Below, piece after piece: positions 5,160 to 61,865 of a stretch of DNA of 64,000 bases (position 1 is the stretch's first letter; each line of letters opens with the position of its first letter). The stretch is from Owenia fusiformis (taxonomy: Eukaryota). The stretch is taken from assembly GCA_903813345.2 (NCBI GenBank), contig CAIIXF020000001.1, forward strand, positions 18,476,001 through 18,540,000. Reading direction: 5' to 3'. Both the position numbers and the translations under genes were made by a program. Under the pieces are notes generated by a model that was not told the DNA's origin, made no database searches, and worked only from the letters and a program-made list of their open reading frames with translations.

Positions 5160-8100
5160 CAAGCTTATTGATGGGGGTGTAATTGATTTATGAACAATCC
5201 ACACACTTTCAATATATCGAGGTATTAGTGTATTGGGCATCTTGACATTCTTTCAAACTTATTGATGGGGGTGTAATTGATATATGAAAAATTCATACTA
5301 TTTCAATGCATTAAGGAATGTGTAATAGGCATCTTTACATTCTTTCAAACGTATTGATGGGGTGTTATTGAAATATGAAAATTCATACTATTTCAATGCA
5401 TTAAGGAATGTGTAATAGGCATCTTTACATTCTTTCAAACTTATTGATGGGGTGCAATCGATGTATGAAAAATTCAAATTATTTCTTTGCATCGAGGTAA
5501 GTGTATTAGGCATCTTTACATTCTTTCAAATCTATTGATGGGGTGTAATTGATATATGAAAAATTCATACAATTTCAATGCATTAAAGGAAGTGTATTAG
5601 GCATCTTTACACTGTTTCAAATCTATTGATGGGGTGTAATTGAAATATGAAAAATACATACAATTTCAATGAATTAAGGGAAGTGTATTAGGTATTTTTA
5701 CATTCTTTCAAACTTATTGATGGGGGTGTATTTGATATATGAAAAATTCATACCATTTCAGTGTATTAAGGGAAGTGTATTAGGCATCTTTACATTCTTT
5801 CAAACGTATTGATGGGGGTGTATTTGATATATGAAAAATTCATACCATTTCAATGTATAAAGGGAAGTGTATAAGGCACTTTATCTGTAAATTCTTTCAA
5901 ACATATTGATGGAGGTGCAATTGATATATGAACTATTCAATTATTTCAATGTATTAAAGGAATTGTATTAGGCATCTAATCTGTCTATTATCACAAACAT
6001 ATATATTAAAGGGGTGTAATTGATATTTCAACTATTCATATTATTTCAATGTATTAAGGCCTTTATCGAGGTAAGTGTAGCAGACATCTAATCTGTCTAT
6101 TCTCTCAAGCTTATTGAGGGGGTTTGATTGATATCTGAACTATACATATTATTTCATTGTAGGGAGGTGTATAATGCATCTTTAATATCTGTAAATTGTT
6201 TCATACTTGTCTAGGGGAGTGTAATAGATAAAATGAACAATTCACATTGTTTATACAATTATCATATTCTTTCAATGTATAACAGTGACGTGTATTAGGC
6301 ATCTGCCCTGAATATTCTTTCAAATTTATTGAGGGGAGTGTAACAGGCATATTATCCGTCCATTCTCTTTATTTATTAGCGCTCATGCATCTGATCTGGC
6401 ATCAAACTTATCATGGGGAGTGTATCAAGCATCTCATGAATCTGTTTATTCTTTCAAAATCATTTAGGGGAGTGTAGCAAATATCTAATCCGCCCGTTGT
6501 TTCAAACTTATCATTGGGAGTATCGGATATCAAGCATCTTATGAATCCTTTTATTCTTTCAAAACTATTCAGGGGAGTGCAGCAAATATCTAATCCGCCC
6601 GTTGTTTCAAACTTATTATTGGGAGTGTATCAAGCATCTTATGAATCTGTTTATTCTTTCAAAACTATTTAGGGTAGTGTAGCAAATATCTAATCCGCCC
6701 ATTGTTTCAAACTTATTATTGGGAGTGTATCAAGCATCTTATGAATCTGTTTATTCTTTCAAAACTATTTAGGGTAGTGTAGCAAATATCTAACCCGCCC
6801 ATTGTTTCAAACTTATCATTGGGAGTATCGGATATCAAGCATCTTATGAATCCTTTTATTCTTTCAAAACTATTTAGGGGGGTGTAGCAAATATCTTATC
6901 CGCCCGTTGTTTCAAACTTATCATTGGGAGTGTATCAAGCATCTTATAAATATGTTTATTCTTTCACATTTATTTAGGGGAGTATAGCAAATATCTAATC
7001 CGCCCATTGTTTCAAACTTATTCAGGGGAGTGTAGCAAATATCTTATCCGACCATTGTTTCAAACATATTATCGGGAGTGTATCAATCATCTTATGAATC
7101 TGTTCATTCTTTTAATTTATTTAGGGGCCGAGTGTAGGAAATATCTAATCTTATCATTTTAATTTGGGAGTATCGGATATCAACCATCTTATGAATCTTT
7201 TTATTCTTTCATATTTATTTAGGGGAGTGTAGCAAATATCTTATGTTCCAACACTTCAGCAATGAATTATTTTACTGTTATATGACCTTTATCTTTTATA
7301 AAAAAAAAACACAATATACGCTCCGCGCCACATTGTTAAAATATGTATGTACAGGGTGTTCCATATGTAAAATAATAATGGAATAAATTGTATGGAACAA
7401 TAAACTTAAATTGTATGGAACAATAAACTTAAACTTAATCCGCCCATTTTTTCAAACTCGTCATTTGGGAGTATCGGATATCAAGCATCTTATGAATTTG
7501 TTCATTCTTTTATATTTATTTAGGGGAGTGTAGCAAATATCTAATCCGCCCATTATTTCAAACATATTATCGGGAGTGTATCAATCATATTATCTGTTTA
7601 TTCTTTCATATTTATTTAGCGTAGTGTAGCAGATGTCTGATCTGTCTTATTGCTTTAAACTTATTATTGGAAGTGTATCAAGCATTTCATTCCTCTATTC
7701 TTTCAAATTTATCTAGCGTAGTGTAGCACATGTCTGATCTCCCCATTATTTCAAACTTATTATCAGGAGTGTATGAAGCATATTATCTGTTTATTCTTTC
7801 AAATTTATTTAAGGGAGTGTAGCAGGTGTCTAATCTGCCCATTGTTTCAAACTTATTATTGGAAGTGTACCAGGCATCTTATCTATTTATTGTTTCAAAT
7901 TTATTTTGGGCAGTGAAGCAGATGTCTGTACTGCATATTCTTTCAGATTTATTTAGGAGAGCGTAGCAGATGTCTGATCTAACTTATCATTGGGAGATTA
8001 TAGGCCATCTTATCTCTCTATTCTTTCAAATTTATTTAGGGGAGTGTGGCAGATGTCTGATCAGTCCCTTGTTTCAAACATATTATCGGGAGTGTATCAA

Positions 8101-8460
8101 GCATCTTATCCCTCTTTTCTTTCAAATTTATTTTGGGGAGTGTAGCACATGTCTGATTTGTCCATTGTTTCAAACATTTTATCGGGAGTGTATCAAGTAT
8201 CTTATCCCTCTATTCTTTCAAATTTATTTAGAGGAGTGTGGCAGATGTCTGATCTGCAAACATATTATCGGGAGTGTATCAGGCATCTTATCTGTTTATT
8301 CTTTCAAATTTATTTAGGGGAGTGTAGTAGATATCATATTGCTTCAAACTTATTATTGGGAGTGTATCAAGCATCTTTTTTGTCTATTCTTTCTTTATTA
8401 AGGGGGTGTAGTAGATATCTGATCTGTCCATTGCTTTCAACTTGTTAAGGGGGTGTAATA
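5160..8460. repeat. ~3.3-kb satellite of ~90-bp units made of two related ~44-bp subunits; two sub-families (~5.2-6.1 kb and ~6.4-8.4 kb)
   Basis: Recurring TTCTTTCAAACTTATTGATGGGGTGTAATTGA and GGAGTGTAGCAAATATCTAATCCGCCC...GGAGTGTATCAAGCATCTT units. Confidence 0.9.
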
Positions 8461-13199: not shown

Positions 13200-16100
13200 C
13201 TAAGATTTATTTTCCTTGTCCTCTTGGAGAAATAGGAATGCTGAGGAAAAGTCCTTGAGAGCGTATCCTTTAGTACACATGATCCTGTAGATCTGGTGGG
13301 CAAGGGAACCCAGAGGGGTGGCACTCTTATTCACAGTAGCAGCATCCTGGGCAAGACCCAAGTCCTGGAAAACATATTCAAAATGTAATGTCTCCATCTC
13401 TCGGTATGTTAGTTTATATGCAGTTTATATAGAGTATTTGCATGAACAATCACTTGTGCAGTCTAGATTGTAAAAATGCAAGTATGAATAATCTTGGCAC
13501 CAGTTCTGATTGTGTCCAGATTAGACATAAATTGTACAGAAACCATGTATCATTAATACTACTATTTGTATTGAACACATCCATCAAAATCGTGCTTTGC
13601 TATAGCAGCTATGTAAAGAAGTGAAATTCCTTTGAACCAAGGATGTATTGAACAGCACACTGCATATATAAAGACCAGTATAATGTTCACTGAACACTTC
13701 GGTACCTTTGTCATCAGGGCTGTCCCAAAGCCTCCCTGATAGTTATTGCTTGATGGTACCCCCTCCTTTACCCCAGGGCAAGGGTTGTACAGCTCACTGG
13801 ACCAGCACCGCCCTGAGCTCATATTGATAATCTCAGCAAGCTTTTTGGGTTCTATACCAAGCCTAGAAATAGAATATAAGACACTCAACAAATGTTACAA
13901 CAATGAGCACCAGCTCAAAAATCATTACACTTTCATGCTTTGGATCTTTTAAAACCTGACCTTGACTTCAGAACAAAGTCTCACAAATATGAATTGAGTC
14001 TGTGCCCATCCCATTCCCCCTTCCCTGTCCTATATCATCTCATCTTGCATTGTAGGAAAAAGGTTGGGCATTTCATAGAAACTAACTTCCTACAAAACTG
14101 CTAATCTAAGCTCTCCTAACAATAACGACAATTATAAAATCCACCAAAGTCAGCTTAATAGTTGAGTTGTCGAATCAAATAGCATCAAAAAATAAAGACA
14201 TTTCAACAAAGAGGGAAGGAATACTAGACTACCTACTTGATACCAAGATTAAAGGCTTCTGCGGTTCCAATCATAGATATTCCCAGCAGCATGTTGTTAC
14301 ATATCTTAGCAGCCTGAAACATGATATAATATTTAATCAACAGTTTTAGGTTATATCATTTTTTAATTATTCTGACTTATGACATTGTATTATGCAGAGT
14401 ATAGATCTTACAGTATTAAAGAAGCATATGGGGTGTATTTTCAATAATCACATACAGGTATGTACATATATGACCTACTTGACCTATTGCTTGCCAATTT
14501 ACTTAAACTTCACAGACACAAATTATTTAGTTAATGTGTTTCATCATATCTTACCTCCCCTGTCCCTACACCTCCACAGTAGACAACATTCTTGCCCATA
14601 TTGTTCAATATCTTACCTCCCCTGTCCCTACACCTCCACAGTAGACAACATTCTTGCCCATATTGTTCAATATCTTACCTCCCCTGTCCCTACACCTCCA
14701 CAGTAGACAACATTCTTGCTCATATTGTTCAATATCTTACCTCCCCTGTCCCTACACCTCCACAGTAAACAACATTCTTGCCCATATTGTTCAATATCTT
14801 ACCTCCCCTGTCCCTACACCTCCACAGTAGACAACATTCTTGCTCATATTGTTCAATATCTTACCTCCCCTGTCCCTACACCTCCACAGTAGACAACATT
14901 CTTGCCCATATTGTTCAATATCTTACCTCCCCTGTCCCTACACCTCCACAGTAAACAACATTCTTGCCCATATTGTTCAATATCTTACCTCCCCTGTCCC
15001 TACACCTCCACAGTACACAACATTCTTGCCCATATTGTTCAATATCTTACCTCCCCTGTCCCTACACCTCCACAGTAAACAACATTCTTGCCCATATTGT
15101 TCAATATATCCTTAGCTGCATCAAACTCTGCTTCTGGCCCACCAACCATGAAGGTAAGGATTGCATCCCTGGCTGCATTCACACCTGGCAATAAATCACA
15201 CAAAATTGGATAATGTATAGTGGTTAAACATGTCAGTCAGGACATAAATATTGCATATATACATGTAAGTGTCCATGAAGCATGACAAACTCACTTTATA
15301 GTAATGAAATTTTGTATGGAACCTCTCTAGAAACCACATACCTTTACTTAAGTGTACCACTTTCAAATATATGACATATATAAGGAGTACATAAGATAAT
15401 AAGAACTAGCTTAGTCTTGCAACAAGTGTTTTCCCCTTCCCCTATTTAATGGTCAGACTTGAGTTGGAAAGAAAATGGGGAGGCATTGCAGGGCCTTGAT
15501 GCATGTATGAAGTAGTACATGTATGTGAGAAAAGCATGAAATGAACATAATAACAGCATCAATATTTAGCATAGATATTATGATAAAGGGTAATTAGTTG
15601 CTCATCATCACACATAAGATCTGTGTCAGATTGAGGAAACGAATGCAGGTAGTCTGGTAGTGGGAGAGGGTCAAACACTTGATACAAAGACTACAGGGTA
15701 ATTTACCTCAATATGTTGATGGTATTCAAACAGCAGGTTGTTATACTTTACACATGCTCACCTCCTGATACAGGGGCATCCATGTAGACTGCCCCTTTCT
15801 TTGCTGCTAGTGCTGCCACCTGCTGGGAAACGGCTGGGTCTATAGTGCTACTATCCAGCAGTAAAGTACCAGCCTTCACTGAGCTGAAATGAAATGCAAT
15901 GACAACATTTTTTTTAAAAGATTTGTTCTTACTTTATATGGCTGTGACAAGGTCATGTTATTTTTGGTTAGGTAAAATGACATCACAAAGTATATTCATA
16001 TAGAATCAACAGTGATGTGTGACATTACATTTATTTGTTTGTTTATAGTTGCTGCGGTTAATATGTGACTGACGTCATAGTTTATATAGTTATCTTTGAA

Positions 16101-24700: not shown

Positions 24701-27700
24701 ATAGAGCTGGCATAAGCCTTATAGAGCGTTAGCATACTTTTACATGATATCCTTTTGCAGGCATATGTATCCTTCGCATCTAAAACGACACAATTGAGAT
24801 GAAAAATGTTAATATTTTAAAAATTGCTTTATGTTACTTCTGAAGATCAAACTCACTTTAATGCTAGGCTACAGTACATCTATTTCAAATAAGCTTGTGT
24901 TGTTTTATAGAACACAATTCAAAGTGCTTAGTAAAACTCTAAAAGATAGTTTTAAGCATTACTGGGATTGTGATATTGTTAGTGGAAGTTTTTTTTTTAA
25001 ATTCTTACATACCATACAGTGGCCCCCTCTGTTGGCTCATGTTGGCCTGGGACATTGGAGTGCCTGGGGGTCCTGTACTTGGCCCTGGGGTGGCTTTGGT
25101 ATCTTTGGGGGGTTGGGAAGGAGTGGCATTTGGGGCACCTCGGGATGCAGCAGATCTCTGACGGATTTCTAAAATATGACAAATAAATTTTGTAATTGTC
25201 TTTATTTCTAACACTTACAATGCAGTAGTACAATTACATGAAGTGCCGTAATGAAACAGATCACTTAAAAATAAAAGGAAACTTTAACTTAATGTGACCT
25301 TTTCTATTTACTTCCATGTTATCTAATATAACATTTATATCAGGTAGTCAATAGTCATTGAACACATGACAATTTCACTGACCTTGACCTTGAGGGGTCC
25401 TCATGGGTGTAGCACCAGGAGGTGGTTCTAACTTTTTGTAGTTCTCTGGATCAAACTTCTCCAGTATTTCTTTGGCTTTCTTATATGTCTCCTTCTCCAT
25501 CACCTCATTAAGCTGTAGTATAGATATCATTTTATTAATTTCATGGACATCCTTTAAGAACCCATCAATCTCTAAACACTAAATGATTTTTTACTGTCTA
25601 GCTAAATATAGATTTTGTAACACATTTAATATATAATTACCTATTATGTCCCTATCATTGAATATATGCCTGATGTCTGTCATCAATATAGCCTGAGCTT
25701 ACGAGGGCTATATTTCAACAGAAGAAGATACAGACATAATTTTTATCTTTATTTCCATATGCTACGTTATATTAATGACGTCACACGTCTGTTTGCGAGT
25801 GAAATTTGGAAGAAATGAAACATGATGTCATAAGATTGTCATGGTAAAAAAGTTTGGCGGCTATACAGGAATATATAGCTGACCTTCAGCTCCATTGACT
25901 TCCATACAAATGCTTCGCTAGGTATGTAATACTCAATAATACGGACATAATTGTTGTATTACATACCTTTACATATTTCCATGGCGACATTATATCAATG
26001 ACGTGTCTGTGTTCGAGTGAAATTTGGAAGAAATGAAACATGGCGTCATAAGATCATAATGGAAAAAAGTTTGGCGGCTATACAGGAATATATAGCCGAC
26101 TTTCAGCTCCATTGACTTCAATACAAATACTTCGCTAGGCATGTAATACAAGAAGTTATAGTTTGACAGCTGGTATATATATTATAAACATGAATCAGAG
26201 CCATTTTTTGAAAAAAATTTCAAATGGTTCAAAATTATCTGTCCCAAATGTGAATGCCTCTTTGAAGGATCCATGTAAAGGTTAAACTACTTTTAAAACA
26301 TTACACGGGCCTTAAACATGTTAACTGTGCTTTGATTGGACTTCTTACCATTTGTTTTTTCCTGTCCTTCAACTCTTCAAGGGCACTTTCTGAAACACAA
26401 AGATTACCAGGCATCTTGTAATTTTCATATAAATAGTACTGTGGGTACTGGGCTCACATTGTGTTGCTATATTGATGTTGAACAATAATAACAGGAATCC
26501 TATTGACAAAAGTTTTAAAACTGGCCAATTGTTGGCAGATGGACAGACAGACGGACGGAAAGAGTGTTTGATTGCAATAGCTCACCATGTGAGCTAATAA
26601 TGATAACTCATAACCCCTTCCTTTATATAAGTGTTTTCCTTTGAAATACAAGTTAACATTGGCAATGTGTAAACTTTATACAGTGTGAACAATAGTAAAA
26701 TAGGACAAAATTATACAGTATATGAAATAAAAAAAAATGATGAAGTCAAAAAATCTACATGTACTTTGAAGAAACAATGGATGATGTCTGAAGCATTGGG
26801 AGGATGGATTTTATTAACCCTGTGATATTTATTAAGAAATTAAAAAATTAAGAAATCTCTAGGCCATTTTTTCATTTACAATTAGACAGTTCTTGCCAGT
26901 GCCAGCATACCTCAAAAGTCCAGTAGTGCTTTATAGAGTAGACTGTCCTGGCAACCACTTAAGGCAGGAAATCTGGACAGAGACTCTCTTACATGTATAT
27001 ATTGCTAGGTGTGAAGAGTGGGGGATGTGACATTAGCTCACTTTGATTCTAAAAGATTAACTTGTGAAAATATTATCAGACATGAACAGCAAGGTAGGTT
27101 ACCCTGATTGCAACAGTTCTTTTCAATGTACTAGTAACCTCAGAATAGTTAGGGCAATTTTACAATTCAGCCGCTCCACCCCCACAGCTGGTAGCCATCG
27201 TGACTCAGATAACAAATCATTTCAAATTAACCCCACTGACTTTTTCCCAACCAATCAGTGAGCAGAAGGAAACATGTTTAAATAAATAAATAATGTTTCA
27301 TTTTGGTCATTACTGGATAAACAACCAGAACAACGGCAACGCCAAAGCGTAGCGAATCCCATCGAACAGAAATGGCTGGCATTTTTACAAACGAATAGCA
27401 AATATCATAAAACAACACACCAGAAAGGCCACCATTTTCAAAGTGGTTGCTCAGTAGCCAAGTTGTCATCAGGAGAAATAATATGCTTTTAAGAAGCCAC
27501 CTCTAAAATTTTTGAAAAATCGCACACGTACTTGTAAAATAACACACATAAAAATGGTGGCCATTTTTCAAAATGGCCGACTACTCCCCAAAGTTTTATA
27601 AGACAATGTGCCATGCTTAAAGTATTCACATATCAAATATGAACAAAATCGCTCCACTACTTTTCGAGTTATAGTAAAATACGTTAACATGACGGCCCTT

Positions 27701-30700
27701 TTTCAAAATAGCCACCTTCTACCAAAAGTGTCATTAGAAATAGACAGTGTGCGGTGCTTATAGTATTCACATACCAAATATGAACAAAATCACTCCACTA
27801 CTTTTCGAGTTATAGTAAAATATGTTAAAATGGCGGCCATTTTTCAAATTTTTTTCAAAATGGCCACCTTCTACTAAAAGTGTCATAGGACAGTGTGCCA
27901 TGCTTATAGTATTCACAAATTTGAACAAAATCGCTCCACTACTTTTCGAGTTATAGTAAAATACGTTAAAATGGGGGCCATTTTTCAAATTTTTTTTCAA
28001 AATGGCCGCCTTCTAGCAAAAATGTCATAGGACAGTGTGCCATGCTTATAGTATTCACATACCAAATATGAACAAAATCGCTCCACTACTTTTCGAGTTA
28101 TAGTAAAATACGTTAAAATGGCGGCCATTTTTCAAAATGGCCGCCTTCTACCAAAAGTGTCTTTAGACAGTGTGCAATGCTTATAGTATTCACATATCAA
28201 ATATGAACAAAATCGCTCCACTATTTTTTGAGTTATAGCAAAAATCGTAAAATGACGAGTAAAGGCCGCCATTTTTCAAGATGGCTGCCACGTGCTTCTT
28301 TAATATCTACATTTGTAACATTATTAATGTCCTTTATAATTTTTTTACATTTAAAACATATTGCTATTACAGTTTTACATATTGCACCTAAATTACTGTA
28401 AAATCCGCACTAAAATGGCCGCCATTTTGAAATGAGCGGCCATTTTGAAAATCGGCTTTTGAGCAGAACTTCTACCCCCATAGGGTATATGTGTACAAAA
28501 TATGAACAAAATCGGGCCAACCGTATTTCAGTTATTGCCCGGACGGACGGACAGACGGACGGACGGAGGCGTTCCCTATATCCCTCCGAACTTCGTTCGA
28601 TGGGATAATGACTTCAGACAAAATGACCATATAAAAGAAAACCACTGTTCTGGCAATGACAAGCTCTGATTGGCTTGGCGAGGTCTGAGGTTTGTCTTAA
28701 ACTGAGTGTAGAGGAAACCTTTTAAGTAGCTTATTCAAAGGAATGCAAAGGGTAAAGGTAAGTTTGGCAAGGAGATTTAAACACACTTGGTGAATTGTTT
28801 GGTTTACTTGTTAACTGAAGGTTGGTTTGAACCGCTTAAATCTAAGTCTAAATACAAGTAAAAACAAAATTTGTCCATGTTAGCTTAACACTTGACGCTT
28901 AATTTGTCTACCATGCTAACATCCTGTTATAAATAAATTTGATCTTGAGATAAATATTATCTGTAACATTACATAAAGAGGTACATAGAGAGATGTATAG
29001 CGAGTGCCAAATAGCAAGTTCATTCAGCTTGGCTTAATGCGATTTACCTATTTCAAAGGATATACTTTTTTGTTTTCAACAATCATAAAAATAGAATAAT
29101 TTTATAGGTGAAGGACGCTAACACAAAGTGAACTGATGAATATGGCCAACAAGGAGACACTCAAGGAGACAGAATATCAAATATAAGCATTCCTTTAAAT
29201 ATACACGATACTTCAGCAAGGAAGGATACCAATTTATTTAAAGAATGGAAACCTACATGTACAAGAGAGAGATAAATATCATATCTACTTTATTAGTGAT
29301 TCTCAATGTTGCACCTTATACAAAAGGTAATTTTAAAAAATAATAATTTAGTTTATTTATATTGTACAATTTTAGGAAGATGACATTAAAGGCCCTGTAC
29401 ATTAGTTTGAAAATATAGTTTGATCATTGAAATATCACTTTTCATGAATTGAAAAACCATTTGAGATATATAAAGTTGTTAATCTTATATTTTCATATTG
29501 TGGAACACATTATTTTCTGTACTCAAACGAAAAGATCAGGTGATTGTCATATTATCATTATTTCAACCATTCAATCTATGATTTAATGCGAATATAAACT
29601 TTAAAAGCTCTCAAACTCTATGAATTTGAAGAAAATCTGACAAGCTATTTTATTGAAATCATGACGACAAAAAGCAGAATGCCACCACAATTACTTTTCT
29701 GAAAACGCAACCAGCATGACAACTTTACATCAGTGGTGGAGTTATAACAAATAACAAAAAAGTAAAATATTGAAAATCATAATGTGAGACACAACCTATT
29801 CAGACTGAACCCGCAAAACACTTGATATGAATAACACAAGCAAATGTGATGTGAAGCAAACAATTAATCATTTTTGAATTTGAATTTTGTTTTTCAACTT
29901 ATAAGTGTTTATGTTGGATCCAAAATTTTGTGTTATTGGCACATATTCATTTTAAGAAGACAACTGAAAAAATTTGTGAAATCCATTTTATGGAGATATT
30001 GATATGCAGTATTGTTTGACCTCTTTCTCCCCTATTATTTTGAAATTAATGGTTGGCCTGACAGTGACAGGTCATCTCAACCCAGTAAAACTAAACCCAT
30101 GTCTGAAATTTTGAATAAAACATTCCTCTTATAAGAACAACCCTCTCTCACCAAATGTGACAGTTGTAATCAACAAATAGACCAATTAATTGATGTTCAT
30201 CAAAAGTTCTACAATAATGGCAGCAATCTTAAAAAAAATATTTCTTTTTTCCAGGGTCCAGATATGGAGCTGAGGATGGAACAAAATACATTATACCCTT
30301 AGTGCTATCTCTTACTATCCTAGTGATAGTTACAATAATTGTGTGCTGCCTAACCAGCAAGAAACAATACTTTAAGAAAATTGTAGAATGGTGTTCTACA
30401 ATTGGTTCAAAAAATGGTACAATTACAAGGAAAACACATTCAAAAACAATTCAAAATGCAACCTCCATCCAGATGATAGTTTTGCAACAGAAACCAACAG
30501 ATATGATAGAAATGGAAAGTGGAGGGGACATTCCAGTGGAGCCTACATGCATAAATGACAATTATTCCTGTAATCAAAGCGAGGAACATAGTGACACAGA
30601 AAAACTTTTGCAAGATAAATGTAAAATATCTCATTCTCATCCCCCAGAGATATTCTTAAAGGGGCAACAAAGACTATAGAGAGTAGTTTGGAATAATTTT

Positions 30701-33700: not shown

Positions 33701-35634
33701 TCAAATTCAATGAATCAAGATGTGGTCAGTATATCATAAGAAGCAAGCAACAAACAAATGATTCATTGTATTAAATGATATTGGCGTGTATGAATGCTTG
33801 TGTCTGTCTGAGTTACAGGAATTTTTATGATAACTTTTCACTTAAAATTCAATTTTCTTACTACATACCTCTTCTAGCCCTTCTAACTCCTCCACAGTTG
33901 ATTTCTTTTTCTGGAAACAAACACAAATTGAGTAAAAGATGAGATGAATAAAATCACTATACCGGGTAAACCTGCATGTTATTTTCTGGTACAAAAGTAC
34001 AAAGTCATTCATGGGGTACTTTTTTGACATTTGGTATGGCAATGGACCCAAATTTTAGGACCTGGTATGAGAATGCCTCCTAAATTATGACTTTTGAGGT
34101 ATGGCAATGGTCGTATTTTTCCACTTTCTGGTATAAGAATGGTCATGGAAAATATGTTACCTCTCACTTGTGGTATGGCATTGGTCTAGTTGTTACACAT
34201 GTTTGAGGTTGTCTTGGGTCATTTTCCTCAAAGATCTGCCTTCTTCCCGGGGCTTTACACAATAAATACCCTTGGCCTTATATTTGGACATTTGGTATGG
34301 CATTGATCCTATATTTGGACATTTGGTATGGCATTGATCCTATATTTGGACATTTGGTATGGCATTGATCTTATATTTGGATATTTGGACATTTGGTATG
34401 GCATTGATCCTATATTTGGACATTTGGTATGGCATTGGTCCTATATTTGGACATTTGGTATGGCATTGGTCTTATATTTGGATATTTGGACATTTGGTAT
34501 GGTATTGATCCTATATTTGGGCATTTGGTATGCCATTGGTCTTATATTTGGACATCTGGTATGGCTCATTAGAGGATGAGATGACAGGTATGAAAAACTG
34601 AGTTGAAGGGTAACAGAAAATAACTATTCTCAATCTCATAAATATTTCTAAAATAATATTAAATATTTTTTCACAACCTTGCTTTTTTAGAGAGTACATG
34701 GCAAGTGAAATGTGATGATGTCTAGCCATGTTGGCTAGAGACTCGAGTAAACCTATAGTTTGAAGGTATCAATACAAACTTGGACAAAATTTCCTGAGGA
34801 GACAATATTCTTATTTATACCTAGTTCAGCAGGTTTGAATCTGAGATGACAGATGAGGGGTGCACACAGTGACCACTATCAATCTTCATTCTTCAATATT
34901 AGATACATTATTCAATATTAGATACATTACATTATTCTATTATATTAGATATTAGATAGATGGTGCTGGCTGTGAGTGCTCTCTATCTTTGCCAAAACTG
35001 AGATGACGGGTAAGAGTTATTCTGTGCCAGCCAATAGTAAACTAGGTATTATTAAAAGGAGTTTCACACACATAAAGGAAAATATAATTCCACTGTATAA
35101 ATCCATGATCCGACCAATTCTAGACTACGGAAATAGCATCTGGCATCCAAGATTCTTAGGCGATAACAGAAAAATAGAGCAAATACAAAGACGAGCTACT
35201 AAATTAATACCTGGAATAAAGGATAAGCCCTACCAAGAAAGACTGAAAGAGCTAAAGCTACATTCACTTCAATATAGATGCAGAAGGGGCGACATGATCC
35301 AAGTCTTTAAAATCATGAATGGAATCGACACAATAGAGCCAAGCTCCTTCTTTACTAAGGCTACCACTACCACCAGAGGGCATTCCTTGAAGCTATACAA
35401 GCATCACTGCAACACTACTGTGAGAAGAAACTCCTTCAGCAACAGGGTTATTGATGACTGGAACAGCCTTCCCGAGATGATTGTGATGTCTGACAGTGTA
35501 GATCAGTTTAAAGGGAGGCTAGACAGATTTTGGCAAACTTACCACTATGATATAGTTTAATTAAATATGAACTATAAATAAGAAAGATCTGAGCATTAAC
35601 AGGACTGTTAGTTAAGACCTACAAGCTCAGAATC

Positions 35635-56922: not shown

Positions 56923-59900
56923 ATGGACAGCACAGACAGCAATCAATTACACAAAGGACATTTTAATGCAGTTGTAACATATGAGAGTGAAATGGTTAAG
57001 AACCCATCACATTCAGATACAATACAGTGTGGTATAAATTCTCCGTATTTAAACATGAGTCACACCAACTTTGATTATCAATATAGCCAGTTGAACCACT
57101 TAATCCCATCAACGACTACAGTGTCTAATGAAGCTAAGGAAATGCCTATGCAACAATATTGGCAGCATCCACATATGAGCAATGTGATCAACTGTAGAGG
57201 GAACTCAAAGCCAGAATGTAGCATACCAGGAAATAAAATATCTGGTAGTGTAAAATCAGGAAATGCAATACCGGAAAATGCAATATCAGAAAGTGCAATA
57301 CCAGAAAATGCAATATTAGGAAATGCAATAACAGAAAGTGCAATGCATAGAAATGGTCCATCAAACATGTATCAAGGTCACTCTGGTTTAAGAAGTGACA
57401 TTTATGGCAATCAACAGATCAATTATAAAGTTCAAACTTATGATAGAGACTATGTATCTCCTGGGATACAACAGTCTAACAAACAACATCTGACGCAATT
57501 TGGAAATGTGCCCCATGACGAATGTCCTATTATCAAACAAGACAATGAAAGAACTCTTAATCAAGATAATTCTATGGGCATTATAAAGGCCCAACATTTA
57601 GAACACTCAAATAATGTATCTCATTGTTATAGAAGTGACAATAAGCAACCTTCAATAACCCTGTCTCCACCATACACAGTGACATATGGGGCACACTTGG
57701 ACACTAGTTTAGGAACAAGTCGCACACCTACATCTGTGCCCACACAGGCCCCTGTTACATATACTGGCATCAAAAATGAGCCTGGTTTATTTAAACCAAA
57801 GGACTTCATTAATAGCGCACATACTTGTTATGATCCAAATGTACCAAGCTATCGTAATGAAGGGATTAATCACAATTACCTGTCAGTGAATGGACCTTAC
57901 AATCATTATAGTCATACAGGTGATACTACAAAATGGTGTGATAGCAACAAACAACCTGTTCATGAACAACATGTGATTGTTCCCAGCTTCAACCATTTTA
58001 AAATGTTACAAACAGAATCAGCTGATTTATCAAAGAAGCAAGTAACCTCTGATCTAGTGACTAAAGTTAGTCCAAGCAAAAGGAAACCTCGATCACCTGC
58101 TAAGCCAAAACCTGATTTAAACATAGATCCTAATTTTACAATACATAGTCCATTGGCATCTTATGTACTACAAGAGGAGCATAGCAATGTTATTGTTGAA
58201 CAGTTTCTGAGGTCTGAGTTTACACTGTGTGAGGCCCTCTCAAAAATAGCATTCAAACATCCAGTGGCTTACATTTATAACCCACTGAATTATGCCATAA
58301 GAACCCATGTTGACTTCATACAGAAATATTGCACAACTGAAAAACAGATTTTGCTACTGGGAATGAATCCAGGTCCATGGGGTATGTCTCAAAATGGGGT
58401 AAGTAGATGTAAAGTTTTTAAATGTCTCCACCACAAGTGGTGACATATTGTTATTCTCCAACATTTTTTGTGGATGGTGTTCGGAGTTCAGTGGTTAGCA
58501 TTGGAGTTCAGAGTCAGTTACAAATGGCAGGTGGAAACATTTTGCATGTTAATGCCTTGTTAATAAATGTAATTGTCTTACTCTTATGACGTGTATCATA
58601 TATCTGTCTGTGGGTGTCCAGATTGATTGTATAACTTTATTGCTGTGATATTGGAAATTTTTCACATTTTTTGATTCCGTTTTCATTCAAAACATCTTTT
58701 AAATTTAAGCTTTGTCTGTTTAGTTAAATGGATGTAATTAGTGAAAATAAACCCTGTCTTCTAGCTAGAAATGTTCAAAAAAGAAAGGTTGCATTGCATG
58801 TTTCCACAGAACATATGATATTGATATCTAAGAAAGACTCTTTCTGAAATATTTCTAGGTGCCTTTTGGAGAAGGTGATATTGTAAGAGACTGGCTAAAG
58901 GTGACAGGGAGTGTTGGTAAGCCACTTAGAGAACACCCACAAAGACCTATACATGGACTAGATTCTACCAGGAAAGAGGTGTGTTAACTTAGATCATTAC
59001 ATGTACATGAATGTTAATACGTTTGAAATGCTAGATGATTTGCATAAAATCTCTGATAACCCCCTCCCCTCATACTCATTTTCTTACAATGTTAAGAAGG
59101 GAGAGGAGGACAAATAAGGAAATTGCTTCACATCAGTAGTTTTTTTAAAACAAAGTCTACCAGCCATGGTATTAATATGTATCATTAGCATCGTACTTCA
59201 TTTAAATGTGTTAATGAGAACTATAATTTATAGGCCTACATGGTCTAACATTTGATGTCTGCTTGTCTAACAATTTCAAGTGGATTGTACCAGACTCTGG
59301 AAGTTAGTTTGATATTTTCATGTCAGTGTACCAGACTCTGGAAGTTAATTTGATATTTTCATGTCAGTGTACCAGACTCTGGGAGTTAATTTGATATTTT
59401 CATTTCAGTGGTGCCAGACTCTGGAATTTGATTTGATATTTCTGTGTCAGTGGTACCAGACTCTGGAATTTAATTCTATATTTTCAGGTCAGTAGTACCA
59501 GACTCTGGCAGTTAATTCTATATTTTCAGGTCAGTGGTACCAGACTCTGGCAGTTAATTCTATATTTTCAGGTCAGTGGTACCAGGCTCTTGCATTTTTC
59601 TATATTTTCAGCTCAGTGGTACCAGGCTCTTGCAGTTTTCTATATTTTCAGCTTAGTGGTACCAGACTCTGGCAGTTAATCCTATATATTTCATGTCAGT
59701 GGTACCAGGTTCTTACAGTTTTCTATATTTTCAGGTCAGTGGTACCAGGTTCTTGCAGTTTTCTATATTTTCAGGTCAGTGGTACCAGGCTCTTGCAGTT
59801 TTCTATATTTTATGTCAGTGGTAATAGGCTCTTGCAGTTTTCTATATTTTCAGGTCAGTGGTACCAAGCTCCTGCAGTTTTCTATATTTTCATGTCAGTG

Positions 59901-61125
59901 GTACTGGGCTTTTGCATTTTTCTATATTTTCAGCTCAGTGGTACCAGGCTCTTGCAGTTTTCTATATTTTCAGCTCAGTGGTACTAGGCTCTTGCAGTTT
60001 TCTATATTTTCATGTCAGTGTACCAGACTCTGGGAGTTAATTTGATATTTTCATTTCAGTGGTACCAGACTCTGGAATTTAATTTGATATTTCTGTGTCA
60101 GTGGTACCAGACTCTGGAATTTAATTCTATATTTTCTGGTCAGTGGTACCAGGTTCTTACAGTTTTCTATATTTTCAGGTCAGTGGTACCAGACTCTGGC
60201 AGTTAATTCTATATTTTCAGGTCAGTGGTACCAGGCTCTTGCATTTTTCTATATTTTCAGCTCAGTGGTACCAGGCTCTTGCAGTTTTCTATATTTTCAG
60301 CTCAGTGGTACCAGACTCTGGCAGTTAATTCTATATATTTCATGTCAGTGGTACCAGGTTCTTACAGTTTTCTATATTTTCGTGTCAGTGGTACCAGGTT
60401 CTGGCAGTTTTCTATATTTTCAGGTCAGTGGTACCAGGCTCTTGCAGTTTTCTATATTTTTATGTCAGTGGTACTAGGCTCTTACAGTTTTCTATATTTT
60501 CATGTCAGTGGTACCGGGCTTTTGCATCTTTCTATATTTTCAGCTCAGTGGTACCAGGCTGATGCAGTTTTCTATATTTTCAGCTCAGTGGTACTAGGCT
60601 CTTGCAGTTTTCTATATTTTCATGTCAGTGGTACTTGACTCTTGTAGTTTTCTATATTTTCAGGTCAGTGGTACCAGGTTCTGGCAGTTAATTTGTGAGT
60701 TATGTATCAACCCTCAAAACTTTTTTGCGAACTGCTTCGTGCACAACATGTGTCCTTTGGCTTTTATGACACATTCCGGTAAAAATGTCACACCCCCTCA
60801 GCTTGGAAAAGAACAACTTGCTTCACTCAATGCTGCTTGCGATGAGGCAATATGCGACATCATAAGAATCCTGAATGTGAAATATGTGATAGGTGTTGGG
60901 AAATTTGCTGAGATAAGGGTTAAAAAAGCCCTGTTGTCTAAAGGAAATATGCCAACTGGATTAAGAGTTAGTAGTATAATGCACCCAAGTCCGATTAACC
61001 CTGCAGCTAATAAAGGATGGGTCAACATAGCCAAGGGACAGCTAGAAGAAATGGGGCTGATACATATTATTACTAACGGTGCTTTGTGTGAAATGGAGCC
61101 TGCAGAAACTACACCTGGAATTTGA
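56923..61125 (+). CDS. SMUG1: Single-strand selective monofunctional uracil-DNA glycosylase with a long N-terminal extension (3 coding exons, ~685 aa)
   Basis: Exons 56923-58398, 58859-58978 and 60664-61125, all phase 0. Motifs YIYNPLNYA, LLGMNPGPWGMSQNGVPFG, EHPQRPIHGL, EVSGTRFW, CFVHNMCPL, IGVGKFAE, IMHPSPINPAANKGW. An acceptor at 56872 implies an upstream non-coding exon. Confidence 0.93.
59285..60690 (+). repeat. ~34 x 39-43-bp tandem repeat made of the SMUG1 intron-2 acceptor plus the start of exon 3, with a ~650-bp higher-order duplication
   Basis: Unit TTTCTATATTTTCAG|GTCAGTGGTACCAGG(C/T)TCT(T/G)GCAGT; the last copy (acceptor ending at 60663) continues into the conserved coding sequence. 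Confidence 0.95.
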
Positions 61126-61865
61126 TGAACCTTATGACTCTGTTTTGTATGGTGACTGTTGTACAATGTTCTTGGATTGTGGAGAGTGCCGGTCTGTCTG
61201 TTCCTGAGTTTGTGGAAATGGTACGTTATTTATTTTCATATTAATGGGCAAGTGTATACTGTAATATAACTTTTGGGATGAACATCTACCAGAAAAATAT
61301 AATTTGATTTTTATTTTAAATAAGGATGTTGATTTGTACCCTAATGTTTTGCCCATATGTTAATACATATCTAGTTACTGAAAATCTTGTCGGCCAGAAA
61401 CATATACATGGCCCAATATGTGGCAATACCCCCTTTCCATGGCTCAATATGTGGCAATACCCCATTTCCATGGGCCTGGTTCAAGGCGTGTGTGGGTGCT
61501 TGTATGACTCTTAGCTGAGGAATCAATTGTGTTTAATTCTGAAGGTTGGTTGCTCTGTTGATTATTCCAATATTTTGGCAATAACATACCCAGAAGTTAT
61601 TCTCAAGATATATCCATGGTATGTGAGATATTATATGAGCAATAATAATGTGACTTAATTGATTGTCTGGTTGAGAAACCTATGGTATAGTGCATCTTTA
61701 ACAACAAGGACATCCCTAACAGAACTTTTTAATGATACCAGCCAGGATGATCAAGCCTTGTTACCAGGGCATCCCTATTTTAAGCGGACTCTTACAGATT
61801 AAGATGCTCTCAAATGACACCGTGGCATCAGGATGTGCATATTAGATTTACAAAGTTGGAAGTAT

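Follow-up and report, generated by a model that had tools for sequence, protein, structure and literature searches.

In a 64,000-nucleotide stretch of the Owenia fusiformis genome (contig CAIIXF020000001.1, positions 18,476,001 to 18,540,000 of the forward strand; hereafter the window), most of the second intron of SMUG1 was found to consist of a tandem array of the gene's own 3' splice site, as a first-pass annotation made from the letters alone had proposed. The array, a minisatellite in which every unit joins the tail of intron 2 to the head of exon 3, takes up 1,383 of the 1,685 nt (82%) of the intron. The conserved protein is obtained from its last copy alone, which runs on into the rest of exon 3, and no sequence of the array was seen in the RNA sampled. 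The most convincing explanation, which we consider probable though by no means certain, is that of a passenger minisatellite which was born on a splice acceptor, resides within the intron and is spliced out together with it. The array has the look of an ordinary repeat whose starting point chanced to be a splice site.

Organization of the array in SMUG1 intron 2

The intron and the parts of the array are as follows (coordinates are those of the window; in sequence motifs a slash marks the splice junction).

58979-60663, + strand: SMUG1 intron 2, 1,685 nt, made up of 302 nt of unique sequence followed by the 1,383-nt array
59281-60663, + strand: minisatellite of 34 units of 39-43 bp, each an intron tail plus an exon-3 head
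59363-60013, + strand: higher-order repeat copy 1, units 3-18, 651 bp by alignment
60014-60663, + strand: higher-order repeat copy 2, units 19-34, 650 bp, its final unit holding the branch region and polypyrimidine tract of the real acceptor
60624-60663, + strand: last unit, ending in TTTTCTATATTTTCAG, the sole 40-bp unit with TTGAC

Tandem Repeats Finder reported a repeat of period 40 at 59312-60689 (33.9 copies, 84% matches, score 1678). A 19-nt motif of the unit, searched with at most two mismatches, gave 29 matches in the 64-kb window, all of them within 59404-60682, and no match was obtained in any of 100 shuffled sequences. Cut in the register of the exon-3 start, the array resolves into a decayed first unit, beginning at 59281, and 33 further units, after which the real exon starts at 60664. 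Each unit is composed of the last ~10 nt of the intron (ATATTTTCAG) and the first 26-32 nt of exon 3; the description of the unit as polypyrimidine tract, CAG and exon head therefore stands, the exonic part being slightly longer than the ~25 nt originally assigned to it. The units are tens of base pairs long and intronic, and the terminal period crosses 60663/60664 into exon 3, as is the case in minisatellites that reiterate a splice site. Two subfamilies can be distinguished, one of 41-43-bp units which retain GTTAATT as in the exon and are found at 59281-59571 and scattered further on, and one of 39-40-bp units in which, when the units are aligned, two bases are missing from the GTTAATT segment.

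The 34 unit junctions, among which the real acceptor is counted, fall into three classes. Ten read CAG/GTCAGT, the real acceptor being one of these, eight read CAG/CT, and the remaining 16 are devoid of the AG (CAT 10, TAT 2, TGT 2, CGT 1 and CTG 1; with the two following bases, CAT/GT 8, CAT/TT 2, TAT/GT 2, CGT/GT 1, CTG/GT 1 and TGT/GT 2). Hence 17 AG-bearing decoys, nine CAG/GTCAGT and eight CAG/CT, precede the real acceptor, each behind a like polypyrimidine tract, and both this number and the three classes agree with the first-pass counts. The higher-order duplication of ~650 bp was likewise recovered. Plain global alignment of its two copies gave 613 identical columns, and in unit register 14 unit pairs could be formed, differing at 16 of 570 positions, while two units in each copy are without a partner in the other.

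Such a structure, or at least its copy number, could in principle have been produced by mis-assembly, which we regard as extremely improbable. Public reads and contigs were mapped to 58250-61400, namely about 6% of each of two raw RNA runs carrying the same species label (X21 and X22), together with the contig set X3 and the raw DNA run X24. Neither of the latter two can count the units, as the depth of X24 is below 1 at the locus and Logan contigs break in repeats. The X3 contigs nevertheless reproduce the left edge of the array (59076-59337), the joint between the higher-order copies (60004-60103) and the right edge (60649-61076). Although labelled 'RNA?', X3 behaves like DNA, since its contigs are unspliced and equally deep in intron and exon, and it represents another individual or haplotype, since it differs from the window by single-nucleotide changes at full depth. 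Furthermore, the variants are ordered among the units, the 650-bp duplication is clean, and the array measures just 1.4 kb. PacBio reads with an N50 above 25 kb underlie a published O. fusiformis assembly (PMC9977687), which may or may not be the source of the window.

Gene model and position of the authentic acceptor

The three coding exons were delimited as listed below, where P0001 denotes a public protein of 685 amino acids deposited as 'unnamed protein product [Owenia fusiformis]'.

56923-58398, + strand: SMUG1 exon 1, coding part; the open frame matches P0001 from MDSTDSNQ, and the donor GGG/GTAAGT lies at 58399
58859-58978, + strand: SMUG1 exon 2 (VPFGEGD...DSTRKE), 120 nt, phase 0, with the donor GAG/GTGTGT at 58979
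60664-61125, + strand: SMUG1 exon 3, coding part (VSGTRFWQLICE...HPSP...TTPGI), with the stop codon at 61123-61125 and RNA coverage to ~61217

A protein search with exon 3 returned 47 matches in all (E at most 5.4e-27), comprising P0001, which is 100% identical over the exon, and 46 relatives. Thirteen of the 19 matches that carry a name are labelled SMUG1, and PF03167 is assigned to many of the 47. P0001 contains the GMNPGP and HPSP motifs of this superfamily, the latter being invariant in 7/7 aligned SMUG1 proteins, and by these similarities the gene is SMUG1, a member of the uracil-DNA glycosylase superfamily (PF03167). Exon 1 encodes a long N-terminal extension as well as the GMNPGPWGMSQNG motif.

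P0001 reads ...STRKE followed by VSGTRFWQLICE..., in agreement with exon boundaries at 58978 and 60664, and the sequence across this junction, ...DSTRKEVSGTRFWQLICE..., is an exact fit. E532, V533, S534, G535, R537 and W539 are invariant among seven aligned SMUG1 proteins (7/7), and the junction E/VSG.R.W is free of insertions and deletions. Both P0001 and the seven orthologues therefore fit 60664 only, and the earlier statement that the last copy alone gives rise to the conserved domain holds.

Some further features of the gene were recorded. At 57223-57355 exon 1 contains a coding tandem repeat of 15/30/45 bp that specifies the ...SGNAIPENAISESAIPENAILGNAITESA... stretch of the N-terminal extension. 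The extension, ~440 amino acids long, is without counterpart in SMUG1 proteins of ~300 amino acids; gastropod homologues of ~1,000 amino acids exist. At 60694, where the homology to the repeat ends, a T>C change is present in all of the X3 contig depth (12.9/12.9) and in 2/2 X24 reads, and in 0/2 X21 reads. The change affects the first position of the Cys codon in ...WQLICE... and represents a Cys/Arg polymorphism, at a position that is variable among SMUG1 orthologues. At the 3' end (61217-61230), RNA coverage stops at ~61217, shortly 5' of ATG/GTACGT at 61222, no AATAAA occurs in the preceding 100 nt, and an X3 contig diverges from the window sequence past 61210. As coverage ends before ATG/GTACGT and AATAAA is absent, a further intron in the 3' untranslated region seems likely, and exon 3 may be followed by another exon.

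Predicted consequences of decoy use and RNA coverage

Each of the 17 AG-bearing decoys was joined to exon 2 (phase 0) and translated. All of them led to a stop after 14-125 codons and none continued into exon 3. The decoy with its exon start at 60544 is in frame, lying 120 nt upstream of the real start, and meets a TAG after 17 codons, exactly as had been noted. A protein search for shorter fragments (84-268 amino acids) gave 44 matches, the best of them with 58% identity, none of which was an Owenia fusiformis protein showing a spliced or decoy-spliced form.

In the two RNA runs the joint between exons 1 and 2 (58398/58859, GT..AG) was covered by three reads of X21 and one read of X22, indicating that spliced mRNA is present in these data. 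The depth over exon 2 (bin 58886-58991) was 3.54 in X21 and 0.9 in X22, and that over exon 3 ranged from 0.47 to 3.81 at 60688-61217 in the two runs. Between these exons, none of the 15 bins spanning 58992-60581 had a depth above 0 in either X21 or X22 at the ~6% sampled, and coverage resumed in the bin that contains 60664. In total, exons 2 and 3 collected ~2,400 read bases. The pattern fits the use of the last acceptor, and nothing in the stable RNA points to array sequence.

The same mapping revealed, within SMUG1 intron 1 (58422-58562), a dispersed repeat of ~140 bp and very high copy number. The depth of raw RNA and DNA reads on it was 120-190 and the word depth in contigs ~5,000. Nearly all of its reads continue on either side into dissimilar sequence, leaving loose ends at 58422 and at 58560-58562. 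It is probably a short interspersed element or one resembling miniature inverted-repeat transposable elements, transcribed somewhere in the genome.

Three 42-bp units, starting at 59488, 59530 and 60179 (spans 59488-59571 and 60179-60220), have CAG/ at their upstream and /GTCAGT at their downstream end and are open in the frame of exon 2 (VSSTRLWQLILYFQ or VSGTRLWQLILYFQ). They are thus conceivable as in-frame cassette exons of 14 codons, for which no supporting read was found in the two ~6%-sampled RNA runs.

What may distinguish the last acceptor

The decoys share the exact sequence of the real site over 14-18 nt upstream and, in the case of the CAG/GT decoys, over 6-19 nt downstream. A local acceptor signal therefore cannot discriminate between them, and whatever separates them has to be sought at a greater distance. 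The real site and 3/17 decoys have a yUnAy motif 18-35 nt upstream. In the last unit it takes the form TTGAC, a putative branch site with its A at 60638, 25 nt before the AG. In addition, the last unit has lost the internal CCAG and carries TAG instead of CAG at +22 to +24, and the junction preceding it reads CAT. Judged from the unit alignment, these changes may hint at a sequence favouring the real acceptor. The last unit is among the four most diverged 40-bp units (four changes each), and units at the edges of arrays tend to diverge for neutral reasons.

RNA structure was considered as a cause of the choice and rejected. Local folding (window 150, span 100) was used to predict the accessibility of 18 AG sites, the AAG/TGG of the first unit being omitted, and the real site ranked as the least open of them, so that structure does not explain why it is chosen.

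Variability of the AG within the units

The first-pass annotation had suggested that loss of the AG might reflect selection against decoys. We computed the variability of each column over units 2-34 (33 units). Column -1 was the most variable, with T in 14/33 units, and it was closely followed by columns +15 and +20 (13/33 each) and +27 and +28 (12/33 each); the values for +1 and -2 were 10/33 and 4/33, respectively. A tally of alleles gave three distinct derived alleles in the AG columns, compared with a mean of ~0.9 per column. When the higher-order duplication was collapsed to the differences between its unit pairs, 4 of the 16 differences fell on the two AG columns, which make up 28 of the 570 positions (naive binomial P = 0.0066). 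Two of these four, however, constitute one adjacent change (CAG to CGT), and one of the four sits where copy 2 misses a whole unit and is thus probably a product of exchange. Counted as events, the AG changes gave P ~0.17. The substitution-density check on collapsed duplicates proposed with that suggestion thus yields an excess in its naive form which is no longer clear when events are counted, and neither per-column diversity nor the differences between duplicate units reveal a robust excess of AG loss.

These data bear on the possibility that some AG copies are used at a low rate, giving frameshifted or truncated SMUG1 and a reduced productive output, with slow selection for loss of the AG as a consequence. 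We consider this leakage rather unlikely, even though several observations speak for it. The decoys possess the pyrimidine tract and CAG of the real site, all 17 entail early stops, and the AG has been lost at 16/34 junctions, with -1 as the most variable column and the naive excess among the post-duplication differences described above. In the donor-side minisatellites of IFI6 and CBS, moreover, the first one or two pseudo-sites are used (PMC1557585). On the other hand, neither RNA run contains a base of the array, albeit at low depth, nine perfect CAG/GT and eight CAG/CT decoys persist, four other columns are almost as variable as -1, the excess weakens once events are counted, and one of the four AG differences is a probable exchange product. 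From the sequence comparison, a weak selective effect on the AG of the decoys is possible.

Donor-like GT and the possibility of recursive splicing

The sequence AG/GTCAGT, which nine of the decoys carry, is compatible with a recursive mode of splicing in which exon 2 would be joined to such a copy, a donor GAG/GTCAGT would be regenerated, and splicing would proceed onward to the last copy, so that decoy use would correct itself. The regenerated donor matches the consensus MAG/GURAGU (PMC1557585) at 7/9 positions, which equals the score of the native donor GAG/GTGTGT (7/9). As at the ratchet points of Drosophila and of long vertebrate introns, an acceptor lies beside a donor-like GT. TT is found at -5/-6, as in 196/197 fly ratchet points (bioRxiv 10.1101/006163), and the next unit provides, 40-42 nt downstream, the donor which the cryptic-exon model demands (PMC8605326).

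Nevertheless, we judge it very unlikely that this ratchet operates in SMUG1. The GT is dictated by the invariant Val-Ser codons GTC AGT at a phase-0 intron and hence needs no special explanation. Ratchet points have been described in introns of tens of kb (bioRxiv 10.1101/006163; PMC8605326), with fly recursive segments averaging ~18 kb (bioRxiv 10.1101/006163), whereas SMUG1 intron 2 measures 1,685 nt. In contrast to ultraconserved ratchet sites, those of the array are variable, the AG and the +1 G being among the most variable columns within it (-1 14/33, +1 10/33), and they have a C rather than a purine at +3 and a GT that is coding. Neither the long intron nor the conserved site of the known ratchet points is thus found here. 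The eight CAG/CT copies could not be re-spliced at all. No intronic reads and no such joints were obtained either, although recursive intermediates would be rare in these libraries and are not expected in RNA data of this type and depth, from which short-lived ones may escape. The earlier proposal that many copies resemble recursive-splicing sites was therefore not borne out beyond the resemblance itself.

Discussion

Of the explanations weighed here, we favour that of the passenger minisatellite. Its origin would lie in a tandem duplication of ~42 bp across the boundary between SMUG1 intron 2 and exon 3 that took place either in Owenia fusiformis itself or in a very close relative. Growth to 34 units would then have proceeded by unequal exchange or slippage, the 40-bp subfamily would go back to a 2-bp loss, and the duplication of 16 units (~650 bp) would be a recent event. 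The whole array would be removed with intron 2, the last copy, backed by the rest of exon 3, acting as sole acceptor. The decoys are probably ignored for three reasons: in most of them nothing resembling a branch site lies at a suitable distance; the last unit does possess such a motif, and AGs that would compete have disappeared from it; and decoys are followed by pseudo-exons of 40 nt only, not by the body of a real exon. The donor-like GT after the AG is a by-product of the invariant Val-Ser codons. The organization of the array, the reading frames, the gene model and the lack of array sequence in the sampled RNA are direct observations; the route of origin, the cause of the last acceptor's success and the neutrality of the array we infer.

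Several points weigh against this explanation. RNA depth is low (~3.5x for X21 and X22 combined) and the joint between exons 2 and 3 (58978-60664) is not among the joints listed, for which at least three reads were required. Four joints lay outside that listing, which was crowded by the high-copy repeat of intron 1. By arithmetic from the depth, the data rule out use of the far copies only at rates above ~10%, and of the nearest only above ~40-50%. The branch-site argument relies on a degenerate motif, and in predicted local accessibility the real acceptor ranks last among the 18 AG sites scored. Column -1 is the single most variable one, and 4/16 differences between duplicates concern the AG (naive P = 0.0066). 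Finally, all AG differences between the duplicates are losses in the copy nearer the exon, for which reason weak selection against decoys is possible.

Minisatellites are unusually abundant in the window. Besides the SMUG1 array, its 64 kb hold ~15 others with periods of 19-141 bp, among them those at 1-528, 5160-8440, 14546-15107, 27551-28254 and 34279-34565. Examples include arrays of 36 bp x 14.5, 91 bp x 8.9, 141 bp x 5 and 31 bp x 8.7, one of 62 bp x 9.1 with 98% identity, and a 48/96/100-bp family extending over 6402-8440. Minisatellites thus arise readily in this DNA, and given so many other arrays, only the place in which the SMUG1 array was seeded is unusual.

The closest known counterparts are human minisatellites whose first monomer lies over an exon-intron boundary and which reiterate the donor, as described for F7 intervening sequence 7 (IVS7), IFI6/6-16 intron 2, CBS IVS13, LMNB2 and PDGF (PDGFA) intron 4 (PMC1557585). 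F7 IVS7 has 5-9 copies of 37 bp and IFI6/6-16 has 25 pseudo-sites; the F7 pseudo-sites are functional yet silent, the most upstream site being chosen by 5'-to-3' scanning, and this intron led to the oriented-scanning model (PMC1557585). As in minisatellites of the F7 IVS7 type, the SMUG1 array is intronic, has units of tens of base pairs, includes the authentic junction in its terminal monomer and copies that site many times. The copies in the human cases normally see little or no use, and the authentic site is the one abutting the exon, a position shared by that of SMUG1. In contrast to the members described in PMC1557585, which reiterate the donor, the SMUG1 array reiterates the acceptor, and its authentic site is the last to be transcribed. 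A scanning mechanism in which the first site wins would accordingly pick a decoy and cannot explain the choice. Unlike F7, whose pseudo-sites are reported as identical, SMUG1 has 34 copies in an annelid host, almost half of them without the AG, and is known from sequence and sparse RNA. By its unit structure, the array is the acceptor-side mirror image of the donor-reiterating minisatellites. Our literature searches, in which coverage of subscription journals was poor, found donor-side cases only and no acceptor-side minisatellite.

Tandem duplication across AGGT, which the first-pass annotation had brought up as a proposed route to intron gain, resembles the present case insofar as it copies splice signals, the segment is spliced out and the frame is kept (PMC3265369, PMC4974935). 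In SMUG1, however, the duplication spanned an existing boundary, lengthened the intron and was then amplified 34-fold. The unit includes the pyrimidine tract of the intron, and the segment 58979-59280 together with the donor lies outside the repeat. As an existing intron was lengthened and none was created, the model does not apply. Similarly, NAGNAG and other close tandem acceptors have in common with the array that several AGs compete behind one intron. Those acceptors, however, are 3-18 nt apart and share a branch site and tract, whereas the SMUG1 copies are 40 nt apart and have pyrimidine tracts of their own. In sum, the array and its derivation from the gene's own 3' splice site were confirmed, and recursion, selection against the AG and intron gain found no support.

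The array might act as a regulator of SMUG1, in that 17 live decoys, comprising nine zero-length recursive exons and eight dead ends, would set the amount of productive message of this DNA-repair gene through the number and composition of units, which would vary between individuals. To this we give very little credence. If it were true, the locus would provide the F7 model with its first natural counterpart on the acceptor side, where the spliceosome has to pass many identical 3' splice sites before it reaches the last. At present, the SMUG1 array is a curiosity of genome structure without a demonstrated effect on SMUG1. Donor-reiterating minisatellites have been a natural test bed for splicing, and an acceptor array with 17 decoys poses the opposite problem. 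The locus could serve to test the parts played by branch site, AG-free zone and exon body in the choice of a 3' splice site. Furthermore, it illustrates that an intron can grow more than five-fold from a small duplication over its boundary with an exon and leave the protein unchanged.

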